The position numbers and the translations under genes are program-made. This document shows, in pieces, positions 5,453-56,974 of a DNA stretch of 64,000 nt (positions within the stretch are counted from its first letter, which is position 1; every line of letters starts with the position of its first letter). This DNA comes from Candidatus Omnitrophota bacterium. Lineage in GTDB: Bacteria; Omnitrophota; Gorgyraeia; Aquiviventales; Aquiviventaceae. Below the pieces are notes generated by a model. That model made no database searches, was not told the DNA's origin, and was given only the letters and a program-made list of their open reading frames with translations. The stretch is taken from assembly GCA_016180575.1 (NCBI GenBank), contig JACPAY010000007.1, positions 1,457-65,456 of the forward strand. The letters are read 5' to 3'.

Positions 5453-5459
5453 CCAGTCT

Positions 5460-5553
5460 TGTGTAATGCGTAACGCGGAATGCGTAATGGGAAGATGCCA
5501 GACAGAGATTTCGGCGTTTCCATTACGCATTACGCATTCCACATTACGCAAAC
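5460..5553 (+). repeat. R5 imperfect palindrome built from TAATGCG/CGCATTA units (rpsH-rplF spacer)
   Basis: TGTAATGCGTAACGCGGAATGCGTAATGGGAA … TTTCCATTACGCATTACGCATTCCACATTACGCA; loop of about 23 nt. Confidence 0.75.
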
Positions 5554-5572: not shown

Positions 5573-6136
5573 ATGTCCCGCATCGGACGCGCCCCCATCC
5601 CGATGCCGACCGGCGTCAAGGTGACGCAGGAGGGTCCGCGGCTGCTCGTCGAGGGGCCGAAGGGGAAGCTGTCGCTCGCCATCCCCGCGGCGATCTCGGT
5701 CAGCGTGGACGGCCAGACGGTCCGGGTGCAGCGCGCCGGCGACGAGGCGCGCCAGCGGGCGCTGCACGGGCTGACCCGCGCCCTGGTCGCCAACATGGTC
5801 CACGGCGTCTCCGCCGGGTTTTCGAAAGAGCTGGAGATCGCGGGCGTCGGCTACCGGGCGCAGCTGCAGGGCAAACAGCTCTCGCTCCAGGTCGGGTTCT
5901 CGCATCCGGTCGTGGTCCCCATCCCCGAGGGGCTGACCGTGGAGGTGCCCAAGCCCACCTCGGTGGTGGTCAAGGGGTCCGACAAGCACCTCGTCGGGCA
6001 GTTCGCGGCCAACATCCGCCGCATCGCCCCGCCGGAGCCGTATAAGGGCAAGGGGATCAAGTACGCGGGAGAGATCATCCGCCGGAAAGCGGGGAAGGCC
6101 GCGACCGGCGCGGGCGCCAAGGCGCAAGCGGGATGA
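5573..6136 (+). CDS. rplF: 50S ribosomal protein L6
   Basis: Track ORF 5570..6136; ATG at 5573 gives [12 protein letters not shown]… typical L6. Confidence 0.95.
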
Positions 6137-6207
6137 TCCTTCGACTCGCTTCGCTCGCTCAGGATCATGGTGAGCAAGGCTCCGGCAGGAGCCGCGTCGA
6201 ACCATGA
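6132..6207 (+). repeat. R2 gene-junction element (rplF stop to rplR start)
   Basis: GATGATCCTTCGACTCGCTTCGCTCGCTCAGGATCATGGTGAGCAAG-GGCTCCGGCAGGAGCC-GCGTCGAACCATGA. Confidence 0.9.
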
Positions 6208-15077: not shown

Positions 15078-16177
15078 GCCGCCGCGTGACGTTCATTCCG
15101 GGGGACGGGATCGGGCCGGAGGTGGCCTGGGCGGCCCGGCGCTGCCTCGAGGCAACCGGGGTGGCGTTCCAGTGGGACGAGCGGATCGCCGGCGAGGCGG
15201 CCATCGCGCGGTTTCAGACGCCGCTGCCGGAGGAGACGCTCCAGTCCATCCGCGATAACCGCGTGGCGATCAAGGGCCCCATCACGACCCCCATCGGCAA
15301 GGGATTCCGGTCCGTGAACGTCGCGCTGCGCAAGCAGCTGAACCTGTTCGCCTGCGTGCGGCCCTGCCGGACGTACGCGGGCGTGCGCGCGCCGGTCCCC
15401 CAGGTCGATCTCATCATCGTCCGCGAGAACACCGAAGACCTCTACGCGGGCATCGAGTTCGCCGCGGGCGAGCCCCGCACCCGCCAGCTGATCGCCCAGC
15501 TGCGGGACTGGTCCCAGCAGGCCATCCAGGAGGACGCGGCGATCAGCATCAAGCCCATCTCCGCGGCCGCGACGGAGCGCATCGTGCGGTTCGCCTGCGA
15601 GTACGCGCTCGCGCGCGGCCGGAAAAAGGTGACGGCGGTCCACAAAGCGAATATCATGAAATGCACGGACGGCCTCTTCATGGAGACCGCCCGCCGCGTG
15701 GCGGGGGCCTACGCCGGGCGCCTCGCCTTCGAGGACCGGCTGGTGGACGCCACATGCATGCAGCTCCTCCTCCGGCCCGGGGACTTCGACGTGCTCGTGC
15801 TGCCGAACCTCTACGGCGACATCCTCTCGGACCTGTGCGCCGGCCTCATCGGGGGGCTCGGCATCGCGCCGGGGGCCAACATCGGGGAGGAGGCGGCGGT
15901 GTTCGAGGCGGTCCACGGCAGCGCCCCGAAGTACGCCGGGCAGAACAAGGTGAACCCGACCGCGATGATCCTCTCCGGCGTCATGCTGCTGCGCCACATC
16001 GGGGAGCCCGAGGCGGCGGACCGGCTGGACGGGGCGGTCGCGGCGGTGCTGCGGGAGGGCCGCGACGTGACGTACGACCTGAAGCCGGACCGCAACGACC
16101 CGACCGCGGTCGGCACGAAGGAGATGGCCGCCGCGATCATCGAGCGGATGAAAACGGTCAAGGTGAGAGTCCCATGA
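15074..16177 (+). CDS. icd: isocitrate/isopropylmalate dehydrogenase family, NAD-IDH-like
   Basis: In-frame ATG 15074 overlapping the previous stop; VTFIPGDGIGPEV…, VALRKQLNLFACVRPC…, IVRENTEDLYAG blocks. Confidence 0.85.
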   Translation: MSRRVTFIPGDGIGPEVAWAARRCLEATGVAFQWDERIAGEAAIARFQTPLPEETLQSIRDNRVAIKGPITTPIGKGFRSVNVALRKQLNLFACVRPCRTYAGVRAPVPQVDLIIVRENTEDLYAGIEFAAGEPRTRQLIAQLRDWSQQAIQEDAAISIKPISAAATERIVRFACEYALARGRKKVTAVHKANIMKCTDGLFMETARRVAGAYAGRLAFEDRLVDATCMQLLLRPGDFDVLVLPNLYGDILSDLCAGLIGGLGIAPGANIGEEAAVFEAVHGSAPKYAGQNKVNPTAMILSGVMLLRHIGEPEAADRLDGAVAAVLREGRDVTYDLKPDRNDPTAVGTKEMAAAIIERMKTVKVRVP

Positions 16178-16187
16178 TAGAGCGTTT

Positions 16188-16286
16188 GGCCGCGGGTCCT
16201 GCCGCGCCGCCACCCCGCCGGCTGTCCTCGGCCTCGTCGGCCTGCGGGCAGGCGGCGGGGGCCCCGGCTCCGCGTCACCCGCGGCC
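16188..16286 (+). repeat. R3 99-nt GC-rich element (icd-lipA junction)
   Basis: Termini GGCCGCGGGT…ACCCGCGGCC; near-identical to the copies at 25220 and 56515 (reverse complement). Confidence 0.9.
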
Positions 16287-17111
16287 GTCTGCGAGAGCGC
16301 GCGCTGTCCCAACTTGCACGAGTGCTGGTCCAAGCGGCAGCTCACGTTCATGATCCTGGGCGAGCGCTGCACCCGCAGCTGCCGCTTCTGCGCGGTGGCG
16401 CACGGCCGGCCCGAGCCGGTCGAGGCGGATGAGCCCTGGCGCGTGGCGGAGGCGGTGCGGCGGCTCGGCCTCGTGCACGTCGTCATCACGTCGGTGGCGC
16501 GGGACGACCTCCGGGATGAGGGCGCCGGCCACTTCATCGAGGTCATCCGGACGGTTCGCCGCGAGAACCCAGGCGTGACGGTGGAGATTCTTATCCCGGA
16601 CTTCCACGGCCGGGAGGAGCTGGTGCAGGCGGTCGTCGGGGACGGGCGGCCCGACGTCTTCGCCCACAACGTGGAAACGGTCGAGCGGCTCTCCGGCCTC
16701 CTGCGGCCGCAGGCGGCCTACCGACGGTCGCTGCGCGTGCTCGGCCTCGCCGCCTCGCAGGGCGGGGAGTGCCTGATCAAGTCCGGCCTGATGCTGGGCC
16801 TGGGCGAAACCGCTGAGGAGATGGAACGGACCTTCGAAGACCTGCGCGCGGCCGGCGCCACCCACCTGACCATCGGGCAGTACCTCCGGCCGGACGCCGA
16901 CCACCTGCCGGTGCAGGAGTACGTCAGCCCGGAGCGGTTCGCGGAGTACGAGGCGCTCGCCTACCGCGCGGGGTTTGCGTGGGTGCGGTCCGGCCCATTC
17001 GTCCGCAGCTCCTACCACGCCGCCGAAGGCGTACACATGAGGAGTCCGGTTCCCGCTTTCCTATCGGAGAACTCTGGGAAACCGGGAACCGGACCCGGGA
17101 CTATCGCATGA
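16287..17111 (+). CDS. lipA: lipoyl synthase; initiation codon unresolved, C-terminus runs into repeat R4
   Basis: Track ORF starts at TTG 16314, but the in-frame conserved CESARCPNLHEC (CX4CX5C) begins at 16290. Radical-SAM CTRSCRFC motif present. Frame is open back to 16167 with no ATG/GTG/TTG. Confidence 0.8.
   Translation, partial: VCESARCPNLHECWSKRQLTFMILGERCTRSCRFCAVAHGRPEPVEADEPWRVAEAVRRLGLVHVVITSVARDDLRDEGAGHFIEVIRTVRRENPGVTVEILIPDFHGREELVQAVVGDGRPDVFAHNVETVERLSGLLRPQAAYRRSLRVLGLAASQGGECLIKSGLMLGLGETAEEMERTFEDLRAAGATHLTIGQYLRPDADHLPVQEYVSPERFAEYEALAYRAGFAWVRSGPFVRSSYHAAEGVHMRSPVPAFLSENSGKPGTGPGTIA
17037..17106 (+). repeat. R4 70-nt hairpin element (lipA 3' end / aminotransferase start)
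   Basis: ATGAGGAGTCCGGTTCCCGCTTTCCTATCGGAGAACTCTGGGAAACCGGGAACCGGACCCGGGACTATCG; 12-bp perfect stem GTCCGGTTCCCG/CGGGAACCGGAC. Confidence 0.9.
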
Positions 17112-25219: not shown

Positions 25220-25348
25220 GGCCGCGGGTCCTGCCGCGCCGCCACCCCGCCGGCTGTCCTCGGCCTGGTCGGCCTGCGGGCAGGCGGCGGGGGCCCCGGC
25301 TCCCCCGGCCCGCTCCGGCGTGCCGGGGCGGGCGCGTCACCCGCGGCC
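25220..25348 (+). repeat. R3 element, 129-nt variant with nested 30-nt insert
   Basis: Same termini; extra CCCCGGCCCGCTCCGGCGTGCCGGGGCGGG segment (itself a CCCCGGC/GCCGGGG hairpin). Confidence 0.9.
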
Positions 25349-29305: not shown

Positions 29306-30661
29306 ATGTTTTCGAAGATCCTGATCGCCAACCGGGGAGAGATCGCCGTCCGCGTCATCCGGGCCTGCAAGGAGATGGGCATCCGGACGGTCGCGGTCTA
29401 CTCCGAGGCGGACCGGAGCAGCCTCCACGTCCGCCTGGCCGACGAGGCGATCTGCATCGGGGGCCCGAAGCCTGAGCAGAGCTACCTCAATATCCCGGCG
29501 ATCATCAGCGCCGCCGAGATCACGGATGTCGAGGGGATCCACCCGGGCTACGGCTTCCTCTCCCAGAACGCCCACTTCGCGGAGATCTGCGAATCCTGCA
29601 ACATCACCTTCATCGGGCCGCCCCCGCAGGCGATGCAGCTCATGGGCGACAAGCTCGCGGCGAAGGACCTCATGCGGAAGGCCGGCATCCCGATCATCCC
29701 CGGGAGCATGGCCGCGGTCCGCAACAAGGAGGACGCCCTGAAGACCGCCCGGCGCATCCAGTACCCGGTCATCGTCAAGGCGGCGGCGGGCGGGGGCGGG
29801 CGGGGGATGCGGGTGTGCCACAATGACGTCCGGCTCATCAGCGCCCTCATGACCTGCCAGGCGGAGGCCGAGGCCAGCTTCGGCAACCGGGACGTCTTCG
29901 TCGAGAAGTACCTCCCGGAGCCCCGGCACATCGAGTTCCAGATCCTCGCGGACAGGTTCGGCCACACGATCCACCTGGGGGAGCGGGATTGCACGATCCA
30001 GCGGCGCCACCAGAAGCTCGTGGAGGAATCGCCCTCCCCGGCGGTCGACGCGAAGCTCCGGCGGAAGATGGGCGAGCTGTCGGTCCGGGCGGCCAAGGCG
30101 GCCGGGTACGTCTCCGCGGGGACGGTGGAGTTCCTCCTCAGCCGGGACGGGACGTTCTACTTCATCGAGATGAACACCCGCATCCAGGTCGAGCACCCGG
30201 TCACGGAGATGGTGACGGGGCTCGACCTCGTCAAGGAGCAGATCCGGATCGCGGCGGGCGAATCGCTCGGCTATAAACAGGACGACATCGCCCTGGAGGG
30301 GTGGGCGATCGAATGCCGGGTCAACGCGGAAGACCCCTCGAACGGGTTCTCGCCCTGTCCGGGCCGCATCACGGAGTACCAGCCCCCGGGCGGGCGCGGC
30401 ATCCGCGTGGACACGCATGTCTTCGCCGGCTACGACGTGCCCCCGTTCTACGACTCCCTGCTCGCCAAGGTCATCAGCGTCGGGACCTCGCGCGAGGACG
30501 CCATCCGGATCATGCAGCGCGCGCTGGACGAGTTTCTCATCGAGCCGATCCGGACCACGATCCCCCTCCACCGGCAGATCTTCAGCGACCCGACATTCTG
30601 GCGCGGGCAGCTGGCCACCAACTACCTCGATCGGCAACTGCAACTTGGGGAGGCTGAATGA
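29306..30661 (+). CDS. accC: acetyl-CoA carboxylase biotin carboxylase
   Basis: Track ORF; [21 protein letters not shown]… and ATP-grasp blocks. Confidence 0.97.
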
Positions 30662-30735
30662 TCCTTCGACTCGCTTCGCTCGCTCAGGATCATGGTGAGC
30701 AAGTCCCGCCATTGGCGGGACGCGTCGAACCATGA
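30657..30735 (+). repeat. R2 gene-junction element (accC stop to pfk start)
   Basis: AATGATCCTTCGACTCGCTTCGCTCGCTCAGGATCATGGTGAGCAA-GTCCCGCCATTGGCGGGAC-GCGTCGAACCATGA. Confidence 0.9.
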
Positions 30736-31772
30736 GCGCTTCTGCGCGGCACCTGGGCGTGCTGACCGGCGGCGGCGACTGCCCCGGGCTCAACCCGGTC
30801 ATCCGGGCCGTCACGCGGCGGGCGATCCAGGGGGGGTTCGCGGTCATCGGCATCCGCAACGGCTGGAAGGGCCTCATCGAGGGCGACACGATGGCCCTGG
30901 ACCTCCAATCAGTCTCCGGCATCCTGCCGAAGGGCGGGACGATCCTGGGGACCTCCCGGACAAACCCCTACAAGCGGCCGGAGCAGCTCGCCCAGCTCCA
31001 TGAGACGGTCAAGCGCCTCAAGCTGGACGCCCTCATCGCGATCGGAGGTGAGGACACGCTCGGCGTCGCCACGAAGCTCGTGAAAGACGGTCTCAGGATC
31101 GTGGGGGTGCCCAAGACCATCGACAACGACCTGGCGATGACCGACTACACCTTCGGGTTCGACACGGCGGTCAACATCGCCATGGAGGCGATCGACCGGC
31201 TCCATACGACCGCCGAGAGCCACCACCGCATCATGGTGGCCGAGGTGATGGGGCGCCACGCCGGCTGGATCGCGACGTGCGCCGGCATCGCCGGCGGAGC
31301 GGACATCATCCTCATCCCGGAGGAGCCGATCGATCTGGACGCCGTCTGCGCCCTCATCAAGAAGCGCCACGCCCGCGGCAAGGACTTCAGCATCGTCGTG
31401 GTCGCGGAAGGCGCTCGGTTCAAGCAGGACGCCAACGTCACCGTCGAAGAAAAGCTGGACGAGTTCGGCCATGTCCGCCTGGGCGGAATCGGGCATGTCC
31501 TCGGGAGCCACATCGAGCAGCGAACCGGCTACGAGACGCGGGTGACGGTCCTGGGCCACCTCCAGCGCGGCGGCAGCCCGACCGCCTTCGACCGCATCCT
31601 GGGCACCCGGTTCGGCATCAAGGCGGTGGAGCTCGTCCTGGCGGGGCAGTTCGGCTCCATGGTGAGCCTCCAGGGCAACAAGATCGTCGCCGTCCCCATC
31701 GAGCAGGCCACCGGGTCGCTCAAGACGGTTGACCCGGAGCTCTACGAGATCGCAAAGATCTTCTTCGGATGA
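30732..31772 (+). CDS. 6-phosphofructokinase, residue pattern suggests pyrophosphate dependence
   Basis: Track ORF; GGGDCPGLN, IGGEDT (Asp where E. coli PfkA has Gly104) and PKTIDND (Lys where PfkA has Gly124); start ATG lies inside repeat R2. Confidence 0.85.
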   Translation: MSASARHLGVLTGGGDCPGLNPVIRAVTRRAIQGGFAVIGIRNGWKGLIEGDTMALDLQSVSGILPKGGTILGTSRTNPYKRPEQLAQLHETVKRLKLDALIAIGGEDTLGVATKLVKDGLRIVGVPKTIDNDLAMTDYTFGFDTAVNIAMEAIDRLHTTAESHHRIMVAEVMGRHAGWIATCAGIAGGADIILIPEEPIDLDAVCALIKKRHARGKDFSIVVVAEGARFKQDANVTVEEKLDEFGHVRLGGIGHVLGSHIEQRTGYETRVTVLGHLQRGGSPTAFDRILGTRFGIKAVELVLAGQFGSMVSLQGNKIVAVPIEQATGSLKTVDPELYEIAKIFFG

Positions 31773-32341
31773 GCGCCGAGGACACGATCCGGGCGAGCCT
31801 CCGGGAGACCGCCCGGCTCCTGGCGGAGTTCCCGGATGCCCAGACCGCCCGGGTCGCCAAGGCCGCCTCACTCATGGCGGAAGCGGTCCGCTCCGGCCGG
31901 AAGGTCATCTGGTTCGGCAACGGCGGCTCGGCGACGCAGGGCCAGCACATGGCGGCGGAGTTCGTGGGGCGGTTCCGGAAGGAGCGCCGCGCCCTGCCAT
32001 CGATCTCGCTGACCGAGAACATGGCCAGCGTCACCGCGATCGGCAACGACTACGCCTTCGAGCGGATCTTCGCGCGGCAGCTCGAAGGCCTGGGGCAGGC
32101 CGGGGACGCGGCGGTGGGGCTCTCAACCTCAGGGAACTCGCCCAACGTCCTCGAGGGGCTCCGCCAGGCCAAGGCGCTGGGCCTCTCCGCCATCGGCCTC
32201 ACCGGCGGCGACGGTGGGCGCATGGAAGCGCTGTGCGACGTCTGCATCTGCGTGCCCTCGACGGTCACGGCGCACGTCCAGGAAGCCCACCTCGCCATCG
32301 GGCACATCCTCTGCGGGCTGGTGGAAGATGCCATCAAATGA
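31769..32341 (+). CDS. gmhA: phosphoheptose isomerase (SIS domain)
   Basis: Track ORF; [17 protein letters not shown]…, [11 protein letters not shown]…, [12 protein letters not shown] blocks. Confidence 0.9.
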
Positions 32342-32407
32342 GGAGTCCGGTTCCCGCTTTCCCATCGGAGAACTCTGGGAAACCGGGAACCGGACCCGGG
32401 ACTATCG
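32338..32407 (+). repeat. R4 70-nt hairpin element (gmhA stop / hldC start)
   Basis: One substitution relative to the 17037 copy by eye; the gmhA TGA is nt 2-4 of the element. Confidence 0.9.
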
Positions 32408-32411
32408 GAGA

Positions 32412-32900
32412 CTGAAGGGACTTTCGCGCAAGATCAAATCAGCGGCCGCGCTCGCGCGCCTCGTGCGCGCGGCGCAGGCCCGCGGGCGGACCGTCGTCTT
32501 CACGAACGGCTGCTTCGACCTCCTCCACGCCGGCCATGTCACGCTCCTTGAGCGGGCCAGGCGGTGCGGTGACCTCCTCATCATCGGCCTCAACAGCGAC
32601 CGCTCGGTCCGGGCGCTCAAGGGGCCGCACCGCCCCCTCGTGGGCCAGCGGGACCGCGCGCGGTGCCTCGCGGCGCTGGAGAGCGTGGACTACGTCACCG
32701 TCTTCCACGACCGCACGCCCCGCCGGCTGATCGAGCGGCTGCGCCCGGACGTGCTGATCAAGGGCGCCGATTGGGGGCGCGCCGCGATCGTCGGCCGCGA
32801 CGCGGTCGAATCGCGCGGCGGCCGGGTCATCCGGCTGCCGCTCCTCAAGGGCTACTCCACCTCGCAGCTCATCGCCCGCATCCGACGGCATGGCAGCTAG
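32412..32900 (+). CDS. hldC: D-glycero-beta-D-manno-heptose-1-phosphate adenylyltransferase (RfaE domain II type); start codon unresolved
   Basis: Frame of track ORF 32214..32900; [19 protein letters not shown] cytidylyltransferase motif. No ATG after gmhA; candidate starts are CTG 32412 or GTG 32463. Confidence 0.75.
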
Positions 32901-42647: not shown

Positions 42648-42664
42648 TGGTCGTGTCTCAATTT

Positions 42665-42746
42665 GGCGGGTCCTGCCGCGCCGCCACCCCGTCGGCTGTC
42701 CTCGGCCTTCGCCTGCGGGCAGGCGACGGGGTCCCCGGCTCTGCGT
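42665..42746 (+). repeat. R3 element, degenerate copy lacking intact termini
   Basis: GGCGGGTCCTGCCGCGCCGCCACCCCGTCGGCTGTCCTCGGCCTTCGCCTGCGGGCAGGCGACGGGGTCCCCGGCTCTGCGT. Confidence 0.8.
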
Positions 42747-42763
42747 TCTGTTAGATTCTCGCC

Positions 42764-43774
42764 ATGGCTCATGACCGCCTATCCGTCGCCGTCCTGGGGG
42801 ACGGCGGGTGGGGCACCACGCTCGCCATTCACCTCCACCGCCTCGGCCACCGCGTGCAGCTCTGGGGCGCGTTTCCGGACTACGTCCGGACGCTCGCGCG
42901 GCGGCGCGAGAATGTGAAGTTTCTCCCCGGCATCCCCATCCCGCGCTCCCTGCCGATCACGGCCGACCTCCCGGACGCCGTCGCGGAGGCCCGGCTCGTC
43001 ATCCTCGCCGTCCCTTCCCAATACCTCCGGCGGGTCGCCAGGCGCCTCCGGCCGTCCCTCCGGCCTGCGGCGGCCCTCCTCAGCGTGGCCAAAGGCCTGG
43101 AGCGGGGCAGCCTGAAGCGGATGTCGCAGGTCATCCATGAGGAGCTCGGCCCTGTTCGGCTCGCCGCCTTGTCCGGGCCGAACATCGCCTCGGAGATCGC
43201 CACCGGACACCCGGCCAGCTCCGTCGTCGCGTCCCACGACCCCGCGCTCGCGGCCGCCGTGCAGCGCATGCTGATGAACGAGCGGTTCCGCATCTACACC
43301 GCCGCCGATGTCGCCGGCGTGGAGCTCGGAGGGGCGCTGAAGAACCCGATTGCGATCGCCGCCGGGATTGGAGACGGACTGGGGTTCGGCGCCAACGCCA
43401 AGGCGGCCCTCATCACGCGAGGGGTGGTGGAGATGGCGCGGCTCGGCCAGGCGCTCGGCGCCAGGGAAGCGACGTTCTGGGGCTTGAGCGGTCTCGGCGA
43501 CCTCGTAACCACGTGCCTGGCCGGCCGGAACCGCTGGCTGGGCGAGCAGCTGGGACGGGGACGCCCGCTGCGTGTGGTCCTGCGTTCCACCCCGATGGTT
43601 ATCGAGGGGGTGGAGACCGCCAGGGCCGCCGCGACCCTGGGCCGCCGCCACGGCATCGAGCTGCCCATCATCGAGCAGGTGAACGCCATCCTCTTCCGCC
43701 GCCGGGCCCCCCGGCAGGCGCTCCAAGCGCTGATGCGCCGCAGCGGCAAGGCCGAGTCCGCCACCCCGCGTTGA
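42764..43774 (+). CDS. gpsA: NAD(P)H-dependent glycerol-3-phosphate dehydrogenase
   Basis: Track ORF; VAVLGDGGWGTTLA Rossmann start, LSGPNIASEIA, GALKNPIAIAAGI blocks. Confidence 0.94.
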   Translation: MAHDRLSVAVLGDGGWGTTLAIHLHRLGHRVQLWGAFPDYVRTLARRRENVKFLPGIPIPRSLPITADLPDAVAEARLVILAVPSQYLRRVARRLRPSLRPAAALLSVAKGLERGSLKRMSQVIHEELGPVRLAALSGPNIASEIATGHPASSVVASHDPALAAAVQRMLMNERFRIYTAADVAGVELGGALKNPIAIAAGIGDGLGFGANAKAALITRGVVEMARLGQALGAREATFWGLSGLGDLVTTCLAGRNRWLGEQLGRGRPLRVVLRSTPMVIEGVETARAAATLGRRHGIELPIIEQVNAILFRRRAPRQALQALMRRSGKAESATPR

Positions 43775-45212: not shown

Positions 45213-45249
45213 GGAGCAGGAAACAGGGAACCGGACCCGGGACTATTGG
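45209..45249 (+). repeat. R4 element, truncated copy (hom stop / thrC start)
   Basis: ATGAGGAGCAGGAAACAGGGAACCGGACCCGGGACTATTGG; left stem arm missing. Confidence 0.75.
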
Positions 45250-46312
45250 AAACCGGCAATGGCCCGGGGTGATTGAACGCTATCGCGCCTACCTTCCGGT
45301 CTCCCCCGCGACCCCCATCATCACGCTGCTGGAGGGGAACACCCCGCTCATCCACAGCCGCGCGCTGAGCCGCCGGTTGGGGCGGGGGATGTCGGTGTAC
45401 CTCAAGTACGAGGGGATGAACCCCACCGGCTCGTTCAAGGACCGCGGGATGACCGTGGCGATCTCGAAGGCGGTCGAGGCGAAGTCGGTCGCGGTCCTGT
45501 GCGCCTCCACCGGCAACACCTCCGCCTCGGCCAGCGCCTATGCGGCGCGGGCGGGGCTGCGCTCCATCGTCCTCATCCCGAGCGGCGCCGTGGCGCTGGG
45601 CAAGCTCTCGCAGGCGCTCATCCACGGGGCGCGCGTGGTGGTCGTGGACGCGAACTTCGACGCGTGCCTGGCGCTCGTGAAGTCGCTGGCCCAGGGGCAC
45701 CCCGTCACGCTGGTCAACTCCATCAACCCGCACCGCATCGAGGGCCAGAAGACGTGCGCCTTCGAGATCTGCGACGCGCTCGGCCGGGCGCCGGACTACC
45801 ACGTGACGCCCGTGGGCAACGCGGGCAACATCACGGCGCAGTGGAAGGGCTACACGGAGTACCGGCGGCGCGGGCGCATCACGCAGCGGCCCGCCATGCT
45901 GGGCTTTCAGGCCGAGGGCGCCGCCCCCCTGGTGCAGGGCCGCGTCATTAAGCACCCGCGCACGATCGCCACCGCCATCCGGATCGGCAACCCGGCCAGC
46001 TGGCAGGGGGCGCTCGCCGCGGCCGAGGAATCGGGCGGCGCCATCCAGGCGGTGAGCGACCGGCAGATCCTGGAGGCCTACCGCCTCCTCGCGTCAGAGG
46101 ACGGGGTGTTCGTGGAGCCGGCGTCGGCCGCCTCGGTCGCCGGCCTGCTGCGCCTGGCGCAGGCGGGATATTTCAAGAAGCGGGCGACCATCGTCTGCAT
46201 CCTCACCGGACACGGGCTCAAGGACCCCGAGCGCGCCATCAAGAGCATCCGCCTGGCGCGTCCCCTCCCGCCGTCGCTCTCCGCCATCACCAAAGCCGCC
46301 GGCCTGAAGTAA
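45209..46312 (+). CDS. thrC: threonine synthase (start either ATG 45209 inside repeat R4 or GTG 45269)
   Basis: Track ORF; GVIERYRAYLPV…TLLEGNTPL…NPTGSFKDRGM PLP-lysine motif. Confidence 0.92.
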   Translation: MRSRKQGTGPGTIGNRQWPGVIERYRAYLPVSPATPIITLLEGNTPLIHSRALSRRLGRGMSVYLKYEGMNPTGSFKDRGMTVAISKAVEAKSVAVLCASTGNTSASASAYAARAGLRSIVLIPSGAVALGKLSQALIHGARVVVVDANFDACLALVKSLAQGHPVTLVNSINPHRIEGQKTCAFEICDALGRAPDYHVTPVGNAGNITAQWKGYTEYRRRGRITQRPAMLGFQAEGAAPLVQGRVIKHPRTIATAIRIGNPASWQGALAAAEESGGAIQAVSDRQILEAYRLLASEDGVFVEPASAASVAGLLRLAQAGYFKKRATIVCILTGHGLKDPERAIKSIRLARPLPPSLSAITKAAGLK

Positions 46313-50399: not shown

Positions 50400-53219
50400 A
50401 TGTCTGCGCTCCCCCCCCAGTACAACCCCAAGGACGTCGAGGAAGCCCGCTACGCGTGGTGGGAATCCCAGGGCTTCTTCCGCGCCGACCCGGACCCCAA
50501 GCGGAAGCCCTACACCATCGTGATCCCGCCGCCCAACGTGACGGGCATCCTCCACATGGGCCACGCGCTCAACAACACCATCCAGGACATCCTCATCCGG
50601 TTTGCGCGCATGCAGGGGTTCAACGCCCTCTGGGTCCCGGGCACCGACCATGCCGGGATCGCCACCCAAAACGTCGTGGAGAAGGCGCTGGCCAAGGAAG
50701 GGAAGCGCCGGCAGGACCTGGGGCGCGAGGCGTTCCTCAAGCGCGTCTGGGAGTGGAAGGAGCAGTACGGCAACACGATCCTGTACCAGCTCAAGCGCCT
50801 CGGCGCCTCCTGCGACTGGCGGCGGACCCGGTTCACGATGGACGAGGGGCTCTCCGAAGCGGTCCTCGAGGTGTTCGTCCGGCTCTATGAGAAGGGGCTG
50901 ATCTACCGCGGGAACTACATCATCAACTGGTGCCCCCGGTGCCAGACCGCGCTCGCCGACGAGGAGGCGCCGCGCACCGAGACCCAGGGCAAGCTCTACC
51001 ACATCAAATACCCCATTTTGAGACAGGGGACAGGGGACAGGGGACAGGGGAAGACCACACCTGTCTCCCGTCCCATGTCTCCTGTCTCAGCTTTCATCGA
51101 GGTGGCCACGACCCGGCCGGAGACGATGCTGGGCGACACCGCCGTCGCCGTCCACCCGAAGGACAAGCGGTACAAAACGCTCATCGGAAAGCACGCCATC
51201 CTCCCGCTCGTGAACCGGAAGCTCGTCATCATCGCGGACGAGGCGGTGGACCGGGAGTTCGGCACCGGGGCGGTCAAGGTGACGCCGGCCCACGACCCGG
51301 TGGACTTCCAGCTCGGGAAGAAGCACAAGCTCGAGTTCATCAACGTGATGACCGACGACGCGAAGATGACCAATGTGCCGAAGCCCTACGAGGGGCTCGA
51401 CCGGCTCGACTGCCGCAGCAAGCTCATCGTGGACCTCGAGCAGCAGGGGTTCCTCGGCCGGATCGACGAGCACGTGCACAACGTCGGCCACTGCTACCGC
51501 TGCCACACGGCGGTGGAGCCGCGCCTCTCCCCGCAGTGGTTCGTGAAGATGAAGCCGCTCGCCGAGCCGGCGATCAAGGCGGTCAAGCAAGGGACGATTA
51601 AGTTCGTCCCGGCGCGGTGGACCAAGGTGTACCTCAACTGGATGGAGAACATCCAGGACTGGTGCATCAGCCGCCAGATCTGGTGGGGCCACCGGCTGCC
51701 CGTCTACTACTGCGAAAGCTGCCGGCGGAGACAGGAGACAGGAGACAGGAGACAAGCAAAGGCCCAACGTGTCTCCCGTCCCATGTCCCATGTCTCAGAA
51801 CCCGGTGTCATTGTTTCAAAGACGCGGCCGGAGCGGTGCCCAACCTGCGGCGGGACCGAGCTGGCGCAGGACGAGGACGTGCTGGACACGTGGTTCTCCT
51901 CCTGGCTGTGGCCGTTCTCGACGCTCGGCTGGCCGAAGAAGACTAAAGACCTCGCCTACTTCTATCCGACCGACACGCTCGTCACCGCGCAGGAGATCAT
52001 CTTCTTCTGGGTCGCCCGGATGGTCATGGCCGGCTACTTCTGCATGAAGCGGCCGCCGTTCACCACGGTCTCCATCCACGGCACGGTGCGCGACATCACC
52101 GGCAAGAAGATGTCGAAATCGCTCGGCAACATCATCGACCCGCTCGAGATGATCGGCCGCTACGGCACCGACGCGCTGCGCTACACGCTGGTGACCGCCA
52201 CCGCCATCGGCCAGGACATCTTCCTCTCGGAGGAGCGGTTCGCCGCCGGCCGCAACTTCGCCAACAAGCTCTGGAACGCCACCCGCTTCGTGCTCGCGCA
52301 GGACGGAATCGAAAAGTACCGGGTACTTCCCAAAGCGGGAAAAGTACCCGGTACTTTTTCAGTAGCGGACCGGTGGATCCTCTCGCGGCTCCAGCAGACC
52401 ACCGCCCGCGTCACGAAGTCGCTCGAGGCGTCCCTGTTCAATGACGCGGCCAGCGCGCTCTACGGCTTCCTCTGGCACGACTTCTGCGACTGGTACGTGG
52501 AGATCGCCAAGCACGTGCCGGCCGAGCAGCAGCCCGCCACCCGCGCGATCCTGCGGCACGTCCTTGAGCAGGCGCTGCGGCTGCTCCACCCGGTCATGCC
52601 CTTCGTGACCGAGGAGCTGTGGCAGCATCTGAGACAGGGAACCACCAAGCCACCTGTCTCTCGTCTCATGTCTCATGTCCCAATTTCGATTATGAAGGCG
52701 GAGTGGCCGAAGGTGGAGAAGCGTCTCATCGACCGCGAGGCGGAGCGGCTCTTCGAGCGGCTCCAGGCGGTCATCACCGCCATCCGGACCACGCGGTCTG
52801 AGCTCAACGTCCCGGTGGAGAGCCGGCCGCCGGTGCATCTGGCATCGCCGCAGGCCGAGGTCCGGATGTTTTTCGAGATCCACCGCCCGCTCCTCCAGCA
52901 GCTGGCCGCGCTGGGCGACATCAGCGTCGAGGCCAAGCGGCAGGCGGTGCGGCACGCGGCGGCCATGGTGGTGGACGGGGTCGAAGTCCTGATGCCGCTG
53001 GAAGGGCTCATCGACCCGGCGAAGGAGCGCGCGCGGCTCCAGCAGCGGCTCGACGACCTCACGCGGCAGAGGGCCCAGGCGGAGGCCAGGCTCAAGGACC
53101 GGCAGTTCACGACCAAAGCGCCCGCCGAGGTCGTGGAGCAGACCAAGACCCGGCGCGCCGAGCTCCAGGACACCGCCAAGAAGGTGTCCGAGCACCTGGC
53201 CGTGCTCCAGGGGATGTGA
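50400..53219 (+). CDS. valS: valine--tRNA ligase carrying four in-frame repeat insertions
   Basis: Track ORF, 939 aa; HIGH-type PPNVTGILHMGH, KMSKS, TTRPETMLGD, C-terminal coiled coil. Confidence 0.96.
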   Translation: MSALPPQYNPKDVEEARYAWWESQGFFRADPDPKRKPYTIVIPPPNVTGILHMGHALNNTIQDILIRFARMQGFNALWVPGTDHAGIATQNVVEKALAKEGKRRQDLGREAFLKRVWEWKEQYGNTILYQLKRLGASCDWRRTRFTMDEGLSEAVLEVFVRLYEKGLIYRGNYIINWCPRCQTALADEEAPRTETQGKLYHIKYPILRQGTGDRGQGKTTPVSRPMSPVSAFIEVATTRPETMLGDTAVAVHPKDKRYKTLIGKHAILPLVNRKLVIIADEAVDREFGTGAVKVTPAHDPVDFQLGKKHKLEFINVMTDDAKMTNVPKPYEGLDRLDCRSKLIVDLEQQGFLGRIDEHVHNVGHCYRCHTAVEPRLSPQWFVKMKPLAEPAIKAVKQGTIKFVPARWTKVYLNWMENIQDWCISRQIWWGHRLPVYYCESCRRRQETGDRRQAKAQRVSRPMSHVSEPGVIVSKTRPERCPTCGGTELAQDEDVLDTWFSSWLWPFSTLGWPKKTKDLAYFYPTDTLVTAQEIIFFWVARMVMAGYFCMKRPPFTTVSIHGTVRDITGKKMSKSLGNIIDPLEMIGRYGTDALRYTLVTATAIGQDIFLSEERFAAGRNFANKLWNATRFVLAQDGIEKYRVLPKAGKVPGTFSVADRWILSRLQQTTARVTKSLEASLFNDAASALYGFLWHDFCDWYVEIAKHVPAEQQPATRAILRHVLEQALRLLHPVMPFVTEELWQHLRQGTTKPPVSRLMSHVPISIMKAEWPKVEKRLIDREAERLFERLQAVITAIRTTRSELNVPVESRPPVHLASPQAEVRMFFEIHRPLLQQLAALGDISVEAKRQAVRHAAAMVVDGVEVLMPLEGLIDPAKERARLQQRLDDLTRQRAQAEARLKDRQFTTKAPAEVVEQTKTRRAELQDTAKKVSEHLAVLQGM
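51019..51089 (+). repeat. R1 palindromic element, in frame in valS (copy a)
   Basis: TGAGACAGGGGACAGGGGACAGGGGACAGGGGA-AGACCACAC-CTGTCTCCCGTCCCATGTCTCCTGTCTCA; translated LRQGTGDRGQGKTTPVSRPMSPVS. Confidence 0.9.
51727..51796 (+). repeat. R1 palindromic element, in frame in valS (copy b)
   Basis: GAGACAGGAGACAGGAGACAGGAGACA-AGCAAAGGCCCAAC-GTGTCTCCCGTCCCATGTCCCATGTCTCA; translated RQETGDRRQAKAQRVSRPMSHVS. Confidence 0.9.
52311..52360 (+). repeat. R6 palindrome in frame in valS
   Basis: GAAAAGTACCGGGTACTT-13 nt-AAGTACCCGGTACTTTTTC, about an 18-bp stem; translated EKYRVLPKAGKVPGTF. Confidence 0.75.
52630..52680 (+). repeat. R1 palindromic element, short copy in frame in valS (copy c)
   Basis: TGAGACAGGGA-ACCACCAAGCCAC-CTGTCTCTCGTCTCATGTCTCATGTCC; translated LRQGTTKPPVSRLMSHVP. 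Confidence 0.8.
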
Positions 53220-54100
53220 TGTCCGGCCTCAGCCGGGAGGCGGTCCTATCCCTCATCCGTCTCGCGCTGCGCGAGGATCAGGCCGGCCGCGACATCACCT
53301 CAACGGCCGTGCTGCCGGCAACCGCCCGCGCCCGGGCGCGGCTTATCGCGCGGGCGCCGGGCATCCTGGCCGGCGGCCAGGCGGCCGGGTGGGTGTTCCG
53401 CGCGGTGGACCGTCGGGTGCGATACCGCGTCAGACTGCATGACGGGACGGCGACGCGGCCAGGACAGGTGGTCGCGAACCTGGACGGGCCGGCTCGCTCC
53501 ATCTTCGCGGCGGAGCGGACCGCGCTGAACCTGCTGGGCCATCTCTCCGGCATCGCGACGCTCACCCACGCTTATGCCCGACGGGTCCGCGGCACCCGGG
53601 CCAAGGTCTACGACACCCGCAAGACGCTGCCGGGGCTGCGGGCCCTTGAAAAGCACGCGGTCCGCGCAGGCGGGGGGCGCAGCCACCGCGGCAGCCTGGC
53701 CGAGGCGGTCCTCATCAAGACGAACCATCTGAAGGCGCTGGGACAGGGGACAGGGGACAGGGGACAGGGGATCCAAAACGCCATTAAGCGGGCGAAACGC
53801 CGGTTCCCTGGCAAGTTCGTTGAAGTCGAAGTGAGAACGGTGCGCCAATTTCAATCGGCACTGACTGCGCAACCTGACGCCATTTTACTCGACAACATGT
53901 CTCTCCATGACGTCCGACGCGCCGTTCACCTGTCCCATGTCTCGCGTCCCTTGTCTCAAAAGCGGCCTCTGTTGGAGGTTTCAGGAGGCATTACCCTCAA
54001 AAATGTCCGGGCCTACGCCCGCGCGGGCGCGGACCGCATCTCCATCGGCCGGCTGACCCACTCGGCGCCTGCGCTGGACGTCTCGCTGGAAATCGTATGA
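53216..54100 (+). CDS. nadC: nicotinate-nucleotide diphosphorylase (carboxylating) carrying both R1 repeat arms in frame
   Basis: Track ORF; AERTALNLLGHLSGIAT, YDTRKTLPGLR, LIKTNH, EVEV, LLDNM, EVSGGI blocks. Confidence 0.92.
   Translation: MMSGLSREAVLSLIRLALREDQAGRDITSTAVLPATARARARLIARAPGILAGGQAAGWVFRAVDRRVRYRVRLHDGTATRPGQVVANLDGPARSIFAAERTALNLLGHLSGIATLTHAYARRVRGTRAKVYDTRKTLPGLRALEKHAVRAGGGRSHRGSLAEAVLIKTNHLKALGQGTGDRGQGIQNAIKRAKRRFPGKFVEVEVRTVRQFQSALTAQPDAILLDNMSLHDVRRAVHLSHVSRPLSQKRPLLEVSGGITLKNVRAYARAGADRISIGRLTHSAPALDVSLEIV
53741..53770 (+). repeat. R1 left arm alone, in frame in nadC
   Basis: GGACAGGGGACAGGGGACAGGGGACAGGGG; translated GQGTGDRGQG. Confidence 0.85.
53927..53958 (+). 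repeat. R1 right arm alone, in frame in nadC
   Basis: CACCTGTCCCATGTCTCGCGTCCCTTGTCTCA; translated HLSHVSRPLSQ. Confidence 0.8.
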
Positions 54101-56112
54101 TGGACCGTTTCGAGCTCGTCACCGACCTCACGCCGAAGGGCGACCAGCCGGAGGCGATCGAGACACTCACCCAGGGGCTCCGGGAAGGGAAGAAGTTCCA
54201 GACGCTCCTCGGCGTGACCGGCTCGGGCAAGACGTACACGGTCGCGCACGCCATCGCCAACCTCAACAAGCCCACGCTCGTCATCTCGCACAACAAGACG
54301 CTCGCCGCCCAGCTCTACAGCGAGTTCAAGAGCCTCTTCCCGCACAACGCCGTGGAGTACTTCGTGAGCTACTACGACTACTACCAGCCGGAGGCGTACG
54401 TGCCGCAGACCGACACGTACATCGAGAAGGACGCCTCCATCAACGACGACCTGGACCGGCTGCGGCTCTCCGCGACCAGCTCGCTCCTCACCCGTCGCGA
54501 CGTCCTCATCGTGGCGACCGTCTCCTGCATCTACAGCCTCGGCGACCCGGAGGAGTACAAGGAGCAGATGGTGTGGCTCGCGGCGGGCAAGCCCGCCCGG
54601 CGCGACGAGGTGCTCTCGTGGCTCGTGGGCATCCACTACAGCCGCAACGACGTGGACTTCCGGCGCGGCACCTTCCGCGCGCGGGGCGACGTCCTCGACA
54701 TCTTCCCGGCCTACCGGCAGACCGCCTACCGGGTCGAGCTGGCGGACGGGCGCATCGGCCGCATCCGGGAGATCGACCCGCTGACCGGCGACGCGCTGGC
54801 GGAACTCGAGCAGATCGCCATCTACCCGGCCAAGCACTTCGTGACCAACAAGGAGCGCATCGAGGCCGCCCACCAGGGCATCCTCCAGGAGATGGTGGAG
54901 TGCGTGCGCAACTTCCAGGCGCAGGGCCGGATCCTGGAGGCGCAGCGCCTGGAGTCGCGCACCAAGTACGACCTCGAGATGCTGAAGGAGCTGGGCTACT
55001 GCCACGGCGTCGAGAACTACGCGCGCCACCTCTCCGGCCGCGCCCCCGGCTCGCGGCCCAACTGCCTCATCGACTACTTCCCCAAGGACTACCTCGTGGT
55101 CATCGACGAGTCGCACGCCACCGTGCCCCAGATCCGCGGGATGTACGAGGGCGATCGCGCCAGGAAGGAGACGCTGGTCGAGTACGGCTTCCGCCTCCCC
55201 TCGGCGCTCGACAACCGCCCGCAGACGTTCGAGGAGTTCGAGACGCTGCTCAACCAGGTGGTCTTCATCTCGGCCACACCCGGCCCCTATGAATGGAAGC
55301 GCTGCGGCGGCCGGGTGGTCGAGCAGGTCATCCGCCCGACCGGCCTCGTGGACCCCGCCATCACCGTCAAGCCGACCGAAGGGCAGATCGATGACCTCAT
55401 CGCGCAGGTCAGGGGCCGCGCCGGGCGCAAGGAGCGGGTCCTCGTGACGACGCTGACGAAGCGGCTCGCGGAGGACCTGAGCCGGTATCTTGGCGAGGCG
55501 GGGCTGCGGGTCAAGTACCTCCACTCGGAGATCGACGCCATCGAGCGGGTCGAGATCCTGCGCGACCTGCGCAAGGGGGCGTTCGACTGCCTCGTCGGGA
55601 TCAACCTGCTGCGGGAGGGGCTCGACCTGCCCGAGGTGTCGCTCGTCGCCGTCCTCGATGCCGACAAGGAGGGGTTCCTGCGCTCGGCCACGTCGCTCAT
55701 CCAGGTCGCTGGGCGGGCCGCCCGCAACGTGAACGGCGAGGTCATCCTGTACGCGGACCACCAGACCGGCGCGATGCGCCAGATGCTCGAGGAGACCACC
55801 CGCCGCCGGGCGAGGCAGCTTGAGTACAACACGCGCCACCGCATCACCCCCACCACCATCGTCAAGGCGATCCGGGAGGGCATCGAGGTCATGCGGCAGG
55901 CGGAGGCGTTCGCCATCCAGCAGTCCGGCCAGTCGCCGGATGAGCACAACATCCGGCAGGTCCTCTCGGACCTTGAGGACGAGATGCTCGTCTGCGCCAA
56001 GGGGCTGCAGTTTGAGCGCGCCGCCGAGCTGCGCGATGAGATCGTGGCGCTCCGGGACAAATACCACTTGAGCGATGAGCCGAGCAAGCGTCCAGCGCGA
56101 TCCCGAGCTTGA
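54097..56112 (+). CDS. uvrB: excinuclease ABC subunit B
   Basis: Track ORF; GVTGSGKTYT, YFVSYYDYYQPEAY, C-terminal UVR motif (FERAAELRDEI). Confidence 0.97.
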   Translation: MMDRFELVTDLTPKGDQPEAIETLTQGLREGKKFQTLLGVTGSGKTYTVAHAIANLNKPTLVISHNKTLAAQLYSEFKSLFPHNAVEYFVSYYDYYQPEAYVPQTDTYIEKDASINDDLDRLRLSATSSLLTRRDVLIVATVSCIYSLGDPEEYKEQMVWLAAGKPARRDEVLSWLVGIHYSRNDVDFRRGTFRARGDVLDIFPAYRQTAYRVELADGRIGRIREIDPLTGDALAELEQIAIYPAKHFVTNKERIEAAHQGILQEMVECVRNFQAQGRILEAQRLESRTKYDLEMLKELGYCHGVENYARHLSGRAPGSRPNCLIDYFPKDYLVVIDESHATVPQIRGMYEGDRARKETLVEYGFRLPSALDNRPQTFEEFETLLNQVVFISATPGPYEWKRCGGRVVEQVIRPTGLVDPAITVKPTEGQIDDLIAQVRGRAGRKERVLVTTLTKRLAEDLSRYLGEAGLRVKYLHSEIDAIERVEILRDLRKGAFDCLVGINLLREGLDLPEVSLVAVLDADKEGFLRSATSLIQVAGRAARNVNGEVILYADHQTGAMRQMLEETTRRRARQLEYNTRHRITPTTIVKAIREGIEVMRQAEAFAIQQSGQSPDEHNIRQVLSDLEDEMLVCAKGLQFERAAELRDEIVALRDKYHLSDEPSKRPARSRA

Positions 56113-56974
56113 GGCTAGGCTCTCCCGGCACATCGGCGGACGGCCGGTTCACGCGTTCCAACAGGTCGGCTCGACGATGGAGGTGGCGCACCAGCTGGCG
56201 GCTGAGGGCGCGGCGGAGGGCACGCTGGTCGTCGCCGCGCGCCAGGAGCAGGGGAGAGGCCGTCAGGGGCGGACGTGGGCGTCCCCGGAGGGCGGGGCCT
56301 ACTGCTCGCTCATCCTCCGGCCCGCGCGGCCTCCGTCCGAAACCCCGCAGCTCTCGCTGGTCGCCGGACTGGCCGCGGCTGAAGCCATCCGGGACATGGC
56401 CTGCCTCTACCCCGCGATCCGCTGGCCCAACGACCTCCTGCTGAGGGAGAAGAAGGTGGCCGGCATCCTCACTGAACAAAAAGTGCCAGGCTGCTCCGTC
56501 GAACATCCCCGTATGGCCGCGGGTGACGCGGAGCCGGGGCCCCCGCCGCCTGCCCGCAGGCCGAGGAGGCCGAGGACAGCCGACGGGGTGGCGGCGCGGC
56601 AGGACCCGCGGCCCGGCGTGGTCATCATCGGCATCGGGATCAACGTGGCCACCAATCCGGCGCAGCTGCCGGAGGGCTCGACCTCGCTGGCGGCCGAGGG
56701 GGCCCCGCACGTGAGCCGCGAGGAGCTGCTCGCCGGCTGGTGCCGCCGCTTCAGCGCCTGGTACGAGGTGTGGACGCGCCAGGGCTTCGGCCCCATCCGC
56801 GAGGCGCTGCGCCCCTGGATCGGCCTCTTCGGCCACCCGGTGCAGCTCACCGCGGGCTCCGAGCAGCTCCAAGGCACCGCCCAGGATCTCGACGAGTCCG
56901 GCCGCCTCCTTGTGCGCCTCGACTCCGGTGTTCAGCGCGCGTTCGAGATGGGGGAGGTCGCGCTGCTCAGATGA
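56075..56974 (+). CDS. birA: biotin--[acetyl-CoA-carboxylase] ligase (no HTH domain) with in-frame R3 insertion
   Basis: Track ORF; QEQGRGRQGRTWASP motif, IRWPNDLLL…KKVAGIL, IGIGINV. Start ATG 56075 overlaps uvrB by 38 nt. Confidence 0.88.
   Translation: MSRASVQRDPELEARLSRHIGGRPVHAFQQVGSTMEVAHQLAAEGAAEGTLVVAARQEQGRGRQGRTWASPEGGAYCSLILRPARPPSETPQLSLVAGLAAAEAIRDMACLYPAIRWPNDLLLREKKVAGILTEQKVPGCSVEHPRMAAGDAEPGPPPPARRPRRPRTADGVAARQDPRPGVVIIGIGINVATNPAQLPEGSTSLAAEGAPHVSREELLAGWCRRFSAWYEVWTRQGFGPIREALRPWIGLFGHPVQLTAGSEQLQGTAQDLDESGRLLVRLDSGVQRAFEMGEVALLR
56515..56613 (-). repeat. R3 99-nt element, inverted orientation, in frame inside birA
   Basis: Reverse complement matches the 16188 copy; exactly 99 nt between GGCCGCGGGT and ACCCGCGGCC. 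Confidence 0.9.

Follow-up and report, generated by a model that had tools for sequence, protein, structure and literature searches.

The DNA analysed here (the window) is a 64-kb stretch of contig JACPAY010000007.1 from a metagenome-assembled genome (MAG) of Candidatus Omnitrophota, in which a biotin protein ligase (BPL) gene, birA (56075–56974, forward strand, 299 aa), carries a short GC-rich repeat, hereafter R3, inserted in frame at 56515–56613 of the same strand. The genome is viewed throughout by way of these 64 kb. The identity of the host gene is based on sequence motifs, Pfam domains (PF03099 BPL_LplA_LipB, E = 1.4e-19; PF16917 BPL_LplA_LipB_2; and PF02237 BPL_C) and matches to solved structures, and an identical protein in NCBI, encoded on a 126-kb contig, is annotated as biotin--[acetyl-CoA-carboxylase] ligase of Candidatus Omnitrophica. 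Neighbouring proteins in the window match MBI2104614.1, MBI2104633.1, and MBI2104634.1 exactly (locus tags HYT90_), and the gene order uvrB-birA-coaX-groES/EL is kept in one relative, with additional genes between its birA and coaX. The GRGRQGRTW loop, the catalytic lysine within KKVAGILTE, and the GIGINV motif are all intact, and the GRGRQGRTW and KKVAGILTE columns are invariant in an alignment of 20 sequences. The alignment with E. coli BirA starts no earlier than position 102 of the chain (47 of the query), leaving no N-terminal winged-helix domain, and the best matches among solved structures are the 235-aa BPL of Pyrococcus horikoshii and 233-aa ligases of the Aquifex aeolicus type, together with the Mycobacterium tuberculosis BPL. 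Judged from its sequence, the BirA of the window is a group I biotin protein ligase.

The initial annotation had described an element of exactly 99 nt placed in frame between two conserved BirA blocks, and both its limits and its setting were borne out. R3 reads GGCCGCGGGTGACGCGGAGCC...GGCAGGACCCGCGGCC and is bounded by perfect terminal inverted repeats of 10 bp (GGCCGCGGGT and ACCCGCGGCC), with a GC content of 86% vs 69% for the window. It runs from the third base of the Met147 codon to the second base of the Pro180 codon and supplies residues 148–180, which in the BirA reading frame spell AAGDAEPGPPPPARRPRRPRTADGVAARQDPRP, a peptide of 33 residues that includes 9 Pro, 7 Ala, and 7 Arg. The insert sits between KKVAGILTE and GVVIIGIGINV, and the open reading frame (ORF) remains open across its 299 aa.

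R3 is a dispersed repeat. A pattern search allowing up to three mismatches identified the birA copy as the reverse complement of a copy at 16188–16286, as previously claimed, with two mismatches (97/99 identical), and the pattern matched in none of 100 dinucleotide-preserving shuffles. Two further copies emerged from repeat finding, blastn, and nhmmer, for four in the 64 kb, and the three copies outside birA all share the orientation of the 16188 copy, opposite to that of the birA copy. The left flanks of the birA copy and of a copy near a Memo-like gene have CCAGG-TGCT..GTCGAA in common (5/500 shuffles reach an equal score), a resemblance that was rejected as an extension of R3 because it is one among 12 comparisons. 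Searches beyond the window returned little: a 26-mer core of R3 had no exact match in genome, metagenome, and viral contig collections from all of which the source MAG is absent, the peptides of all six frames matched only BirA itself in a set of 5.8 billion proteins, and the 33-aa R3 peptide had no match among 1.84 billion cluster representatives, as expected for a short, low-complexity query. A query with the 83-aa loop likewise matched no protein and missed the source protein as well, making it uninformative. No family, intron, or ribozyme in Rfam matches R3, and R3 as an intron, a ribozyme, or a known small RNA was rejected on that ground.

The element is strongly self-complementary, with an ungapped identity to its own reverse complement of 54.5% vs 37 ± 6% in shuffles, and pairing runs along most of its length, beyond the terminal repeats. 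An nhmmer profile of the four copies, run over 0.94 Mb of loci, gave a single near-full-length match (L012:6095-6205, E = 0.014; 1e-12 after this copy was added to the profile). L012 (JACQHR010000011.1) belongs to a different Omnitrophota MAG, the BirA of which is 54% identical to that of the window. The L012 homologue is 111 nt long and ~70% identical to R3, with the same architecture and hairpin, and its termini (GCAGCGGGT and ACCCGCTGC) keep 9 bp, including a compensatory change from C-G to A-T. Across the five copies RNAalifold predicts 35 pairs, six of them with compensatory changes on both sides. The homologue lies in frame within an intact valS of 959 aa, in the orientation and frame seen in birA, and encodes AAGDAGGEAPAARPESRRDSRRARTDGGVSQAAGPAA, in which the pattern AAGDAGG...AAGPAA resembles the peptide of the birA copy. 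The initial annotation had also held that the element is tolerated within genes in both orientations; this did not stand, as the only other clear intragenic copy, that in the L012 valS, has the same orientation as the birA copy, and translation has been shown for none of the other three copies in the window.

Among the homologues listed, the insert is confined to the window's BirA, and it occupies a surface turn in the predicted structure. The next-best homologues (71% identity, 256–268 aa) are without the 33 codons, the R3 insert is missing in all 119 other homologues among the matches listed, and in the 20-sequence alignment its 33 residues align with nothing. Against the P. horikoshii BPL, query residues 18–136 align with chain residues 6–120 and query residues 182–297 with chain residues 123–232, so that residues 137–181 stand in place of two residues, in keeping with the earlier statement that this region is short in other BirA sequences. 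Query E134 corresponds to E. coli E190, placing the insert at the E. coli 191–199 loop; in the class II BirA of E. coli the 193–199 loop is part of the dimerisation interface and residues 189–195 form an intermolecular sheet (PMC5640590). An AlphaFold2 model of the protein (mean predicted local distance difference test score, pLDDT, 83.9; predicted template modelling score 0.81) has strands at 126–136 and 182–190 with residues 137–181 entirely in coil, and the pLDDT means of ten-residue blocks are 42–63 in 137–181 vs >90 in the flanking blocks. Foldseek superposed the model on the P. horikoshii BPL with a TM-score of 0.88 (target-normalised) and a root-mean-square deviation of 2.2 Å. The lack of structure in 137–181, with strands on either side, places the insert outside the folded core, and in the model it is at the tip of the beta-hairpin that comes after the strand bearing the catalytic lysine.

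The expanded loop is composite. The claim of an insertion of at least 33 codons held for R3, which contributes exactly 33, and the total excess amounts to ~43–45 residues once an older insert of 12–13 residues is included. This older expansion (QKVPGCSVEHPRM, residues 135–147; 56477–56514, forward strand) adjoins R3 upstream. Its first 15 nt (CAAAAAGTGCCAGGC, 56477–56491) equal the start of the birA insert in the nearest relative, L001 (JGI 3300022563), and are followed by 23 nt that are unique and then by R3. The L001 insert is itself a double hairpin of 48 nt (CAAAAAGTGCCAGGCACTTTGGAAAAAGGGAGCTGCTCCCTTTTTTCC), the second hairpin of which is found twice more within 1.7 kb, and the inserts in the BirA loops of L012 and L010 likewise have further copies in their respective loci.

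A survey of the number of residues separating the GILxE motif from GxGxN across 112 BirA homologues revealed that the turn is a hot spot for insertions. The spacing is 7–9 residues in 80/112 homologues (e.g., ARNGAVVV), while the remaining 32/112 (29%) have longer, mutually unrelated inserts with a spacing of up to 54 residues, the relatives that bear inserts having 5–46 extra residues. At 51 residues the BirA of the window has the second longest spacing in the survey. Many of the inserts resemble translated palindromes, such as SGLRAQGS...LSPQPS and STQPPAPSTQS. The R3 insert is thus absent from orthologues, and an expansion at this turn is not unique to the window. No conserved DNA palindrome was present at the unexpanded BirA turns of eight relatives, which offer no evidence for sequence-directed targeting, and for this reason the hot spot is ascribed to tolerance, i.e., to the survivorship of insertions, rather than to targeting.

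The favoured explanation, at a rough probability of 80%, is that R3 is a non-autonomous palindromic repeat, similar to a miniature inverted-repeat transposable element (MITE) or to a paired form of the repetitive extragenic palindromic (REP) sequences (REPIN), that has been retained as a translated surface loop of BirA. A copy would have entered the turn of the beta-hairpin after the catalytic-lysine strand, and would have done so recently, because the birA copy shares 97–98% identity with another copy, compared with only 71% between the gene and its nearest known relative. It would have been kept because its net length is divisible by three, its frame is free of stops, and the turn is solvent-exposed and permissive. 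The ribosome would translate straight through R3 in the birA mRNA, and BirA would gain a disordered stretch of 33 residues rich in Pro, Arg, and Ala atop the older expansion of 12–13 residues, at a position expected to be dispensable for a group I ligase that is monomeric or dimerises differently. As modelled, the enzyme core is presumably unchanged and its activity retained. Two peptides, QDPRPGVVIIGIGINV and QDPRPGVVIIGIGINVATNPAQLPEGSTSLAAEGAPHVSR, are predicted to cross the insert junctions. The R3 insert is, in these terms, a new repeat family showing a known in-frame behaviour.

Several observations weigh against this explanation. Five of the six reading frames of R3 are open, which makes the open birA frame weak evidence for selection. 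The predicted fold energy of R3 gives it no advantage over dinucleotide shuffles of equal composition (z = −0.59), so that the evidence for a hairpin is its self-complementarity and covariation. No target-site duplication was seen in the flanks of the four window copies or of the L012 copy; a cryptic duplication may be concealed within the palindromic GGCC ends of R3. A search with the terminal 16-mer recovered no longer element with R3 ends in the window, the ORFs of which were not screened for transposase domains, and in the absence of such a parent element the case for mobility draws on copy number and similarity. Further, a look-up of independent contigs encoding BirA, CoaX, or UvrB yielded no record, and a second biotin ligase may be encoded outside the 64-kb window.

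The three other copies, all on the reverse strand, lie between genes or at gene starts. The copy at 16188–16286 is situated between the stop codon of an icd-like gene (16177) and the CX4CX5C motif of lipA (16290). In the lipA frame there is no ATG, GTG, or TTG between the upstream stop and position 16314, which falls past the first two cysteines of the motif, and an ATG at 16174 is out of the lipA frame. The 33 in-frame codons preceding the motif are derived from R3. Solved LipA structures align from AVCES on (residue 35 in Thermosynechococcus elongatus and residue 73 in M. tuberculosis), with ~35 of their N-terminal residues missing from the lipA of the window, and neither of two candidate LipA products was present in the protein collection. 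Going by its sequence, this lipA may be a damaged gene, or its translation may begin at a non-canonical codon.

The copy at 25220–25348 is 129 nt long owing to an internal extra segment of 30 nt and is located after the stop codon of an M16 peptidase gene (25204) and before the annotated GTG start (25416) of the Memo-like gene. The NCBI start of the Memo-like protein is this GTG (MAGYYYP...), downstream of the copy. The RPAV immediately before it still fits the Pfam Memo model, with the match beginning at model position 2, and the only in-frame starts further upstream (25179, 25188, and 25218) all precede the R3 copy. The copy may constitute a translated N-terminal extension of the Memo-like protein, to judge from the reading frame. 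The last copy, at 42661–42746, is diverged, with eroded ends and a 3-nt deletion, and is intergenic, 18 nt upstream of gpsA.

Independent assemblies were available at the 42661 copy. In Logan assemblies of five sequencing runs, contigs that carry the unique genes flanking this copy stop 17–18 nt into it or begin inside it, which is how a genuine multi-copy repeat in the reads should behave; Logan assemblies are built with k = 31. Contigs from four runs (L004–L007; SRR12113431, SRR12113390, SRR12113401, and SRR12113383) have an identical gpsA and 57 extra nt upstream of it relative to window positions 42735–42765. These comprise a complete right R3 end (TCACCCGCC), then AAATTGAGACA, an inverted repeat of the left flank TGTCTCAATTT, and then 37 nt. 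The difference is either a deletion polymorphism, which would make R3 a structurally polymorphic family, or a local collapse in the MAG. The birA-specific left flank had no match in the metagenome contig collection, which does not contain the source MAG.

The surface loop could also be an acquired function, in which the Pro/Arg-rich segment adds to the properties of BirA, for instance by changing how it oligomerises or which partners it binds. The position of the equivalent E. coli 193–199 loop in the dimerisation interface (PMC5640590) would fit such a role, as would the repeated expansion of the BirA loop across the clade and the R3 homologue in the valS of another genome, in the same frame and with a similar AAGDA...AAGPAA peptide. 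Co-option is nonetheless unlikely, since the turn inserts of the relatives are unrelated to one another, 71% of the homologues have none, and the modelled loop is disordered. The birA copy is, moreover, nearly identical to copies that lack demonstrated translation, and so gives no sign of adaptation at the protein level.

It is quite improbable that R3 goes untranslated, whether by excision from the transcript or the DNA, or because it blocks expression and leaves birA a pseudogene backed by another ligase. The long hairpin formed by R3, the view of only 64 kb of the genome, and the apparent damage to the 5' end of lipA, where no canonical start precedes the CX4CX5C motif, are compatible with this possibility, and the lipA case implies that R3 insertions are not always harmless. 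Against it, the frame is kept and contains no stop codon, all of the BPL motifs are intact within a confidently modelled core, and the element matches nothing in Rfam, introns and ribozymes included. The turn inserts of 5–46 residues in the conserved proteins of relatives are also most easily explained as translated and tolerated.

That the metagenome assembler spliced R3 into birA is highly improbable: although the source is a MAG, R3 is multi-copy, the 57 extra nt at the 42661 copy reveal that repeat-linked assembly or strain differences occur in this genome, and no independent contig across birA was retrieved, the BirA sequence resumes on both sides of an insert lying exactly at the turn that is expanded in 29% of homologues, the length is a multiple of three with an open frame, two private substitutions indicate that the birA copy is not a pasted duplicate of the 16188 copy, and typical Illumina reads are longer than 99 nt, allowing single reads to bridge R3.

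Retention of R3 as a translated loop has its closest parallel in the Rickettsia palindromic elements (RPEs; Ogata et al. 2000, 2002, as described in PMC10969869 and PMC3733652). RPEs interrupt many housekeeping genes without breaking the reading frame, and the protein fold is predicted to accommodate them (PMC10969869). R3 is similar in being a short, palindromic, dispersed repeat (RPEs measure about 100–150 bp), in being located in frame within unrelated housekeeping genes at fold-tolerant surface sites with a consistent frame (for R3, birA and the L012 valS; n = 2), and in having other copies that are intergenic or at the 5' ends of genes. The likeness is one of behaviour, and no sequence relationship is assumed. 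RPEs are AT-rich, and the 86% GC of R3 together with its Omnitrophota host makes homology between the two implausible. The host of R3 is a groundwater Omnitrophota MAG, in contrast to an obligate intracellular alphaproteobacterium, and a single intragenic copy is present in this genome fragment, with one homologue in another MAG. Unlike the sites of RPEs, the site of R3 is a clade-wide hot spot used by several unrelated repeat families.

REP sequences and REPINs tagged by GTAG or CGTC (Di Nocera et al. 2013, PMC3733652) are, like R3, hairpin repeats without a visible target-site duplication. REPs have been found inside ORFs for replication, repair, and tRNA synthetases in several phyla, including a bacterium of the Planctomycetes–Verrucomicrobia–Chlamydiae group, Opitutus terrae (PMC3733652); intragenic copies in O. 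terrae, Thauera, and others, among them copies in tRNA-synthetase genes, occur alongside copies at the 5' ends of ORFs whose coding status is uncertain (PMC3733652). R3 differs in being a single unit of 99 nt, asymmetric at its inner ends (GGGTGACGC vs GCAGGACCC), rather than a pair of REPs of 20–40 nt. GACG, the complement of CGTC, follows only one of its terminal repeats, the other end has AGGAC, GTAG is absent, and the asymmetry is kept in the L012 copy. With bacterial MITEs (e.g., Correia/NEMIS, ERIC, Nezha, and QMITE; PMC10969869) R3 shares its small size (99 or 129 nt vs <~500 bp), terminal inverted repeats, multiple copies, the lack of a transposase ORF, and the possibility of in-frame fusions when intragenic. 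It departs from them in having no visible target-site duplication or identified parent insertion sequence, in its extreme GC content, and in pairing along most of the element rather than in the terminal repeats only. A full-text literature search combining Omnitrophica with palindromic repeats yielded only papers that were related to CRISPR or otherwise unrelated.

In-frame palindromic repeats in essential genes are best documented in Rickettsia, and with R3 the behaviour is seen in a candidate phylum that is free-living, the element being unrelated and extremely GC-rich. One biotin ligase beta-turn and at least three ValRS sites have been entered repeatedly by different repeats across the clade, providing a natural guide to the loops that tolerate insertions in two essential enzymes and a tractable case for separating hot spots produced by targeting from those produced by survivorship alone. 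For the annotation of MAGs, the lipA and Memo-like genes serve as a warning that starts and gene ends near R3-like repeats are unreliable.

A wider extension is tentative and rather doubtful: Omnitrophota may carry hairpin repeats phylum-wide, in multiple families (of the R3 type and with heptamer stems), that enter the same permissive loops of birA, valS, and nadC in frame, with the hairpins kept by compensatory change and the repeats homogenised or replaced within each genome. If so, orthologous sites would carry genome-specific repeat sequences, the phylum would host a second, independent, and more dynamic system of coding palindromes outside Rickettsia, and targeted insertion, gene conversion, or a role played by the DNA or RNA itself might be involved.

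The valS of the window (50400–53219) contains another palindromic repeat in frame, in two copies (51020–51090 and 51728–51798), with arms of GGGGACA ×4 and of TGTCTCC-like units. ValS of L002 and L012 is also expanded at these two sites, with sequences specific to each genome (QGSGLRAQG...AHSPEPPA; GQGAGDGGQG...HAPRLTPHAP). Because the shared sites carry genome-specific sequences, the data suggest that the valS inserts are ancient and have since been homogenised or replaced genome by genome. Additionally, at residues ~638 and ~751 (about 52310 and 52650) the window ValS has small insertions relative to that of L002 (KYRVLPKAGKVPGTF and TTKPPVSRLMSHVP, respectively), the first of which holds KVPGT, as does the older insert in the BirA loop, and corresponds to the site of the R3 homologue in L012. 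The extra residues at this ValRS position differ between the window and L002.

A tract of GGGGACA heptamers also occurs in frame at 53740–53770, within an ORF at 53216–54100 (GQGTGDRGQG) that is syntenic with an L002 gene having Pfam domains of a quinolinate phosphoribosyltransferase (nadC-type). The corresponding position of the L002 NadC is filled by a different repeat-like peptide, THDSRLTTHD. A repeat of 73 nt, 97% identical between 17034–17106 and 32335–32407 and with a partial copy at 45219–45253, makes up the last ~25 codons and the stop of lipA, following the conserved SSYHAAEG, and overlaps the 3' end of an ORF at 31729–32415. Elsewhere in the window are an inverted repeat of 35 nt with GCGTAAT-like heptamers (5459–5551) and a 51-nt direct repeat, 96% identical, at 6128–6178 and 30653–30703, with an internal palindrome (GATGATCC...GGATCATG).

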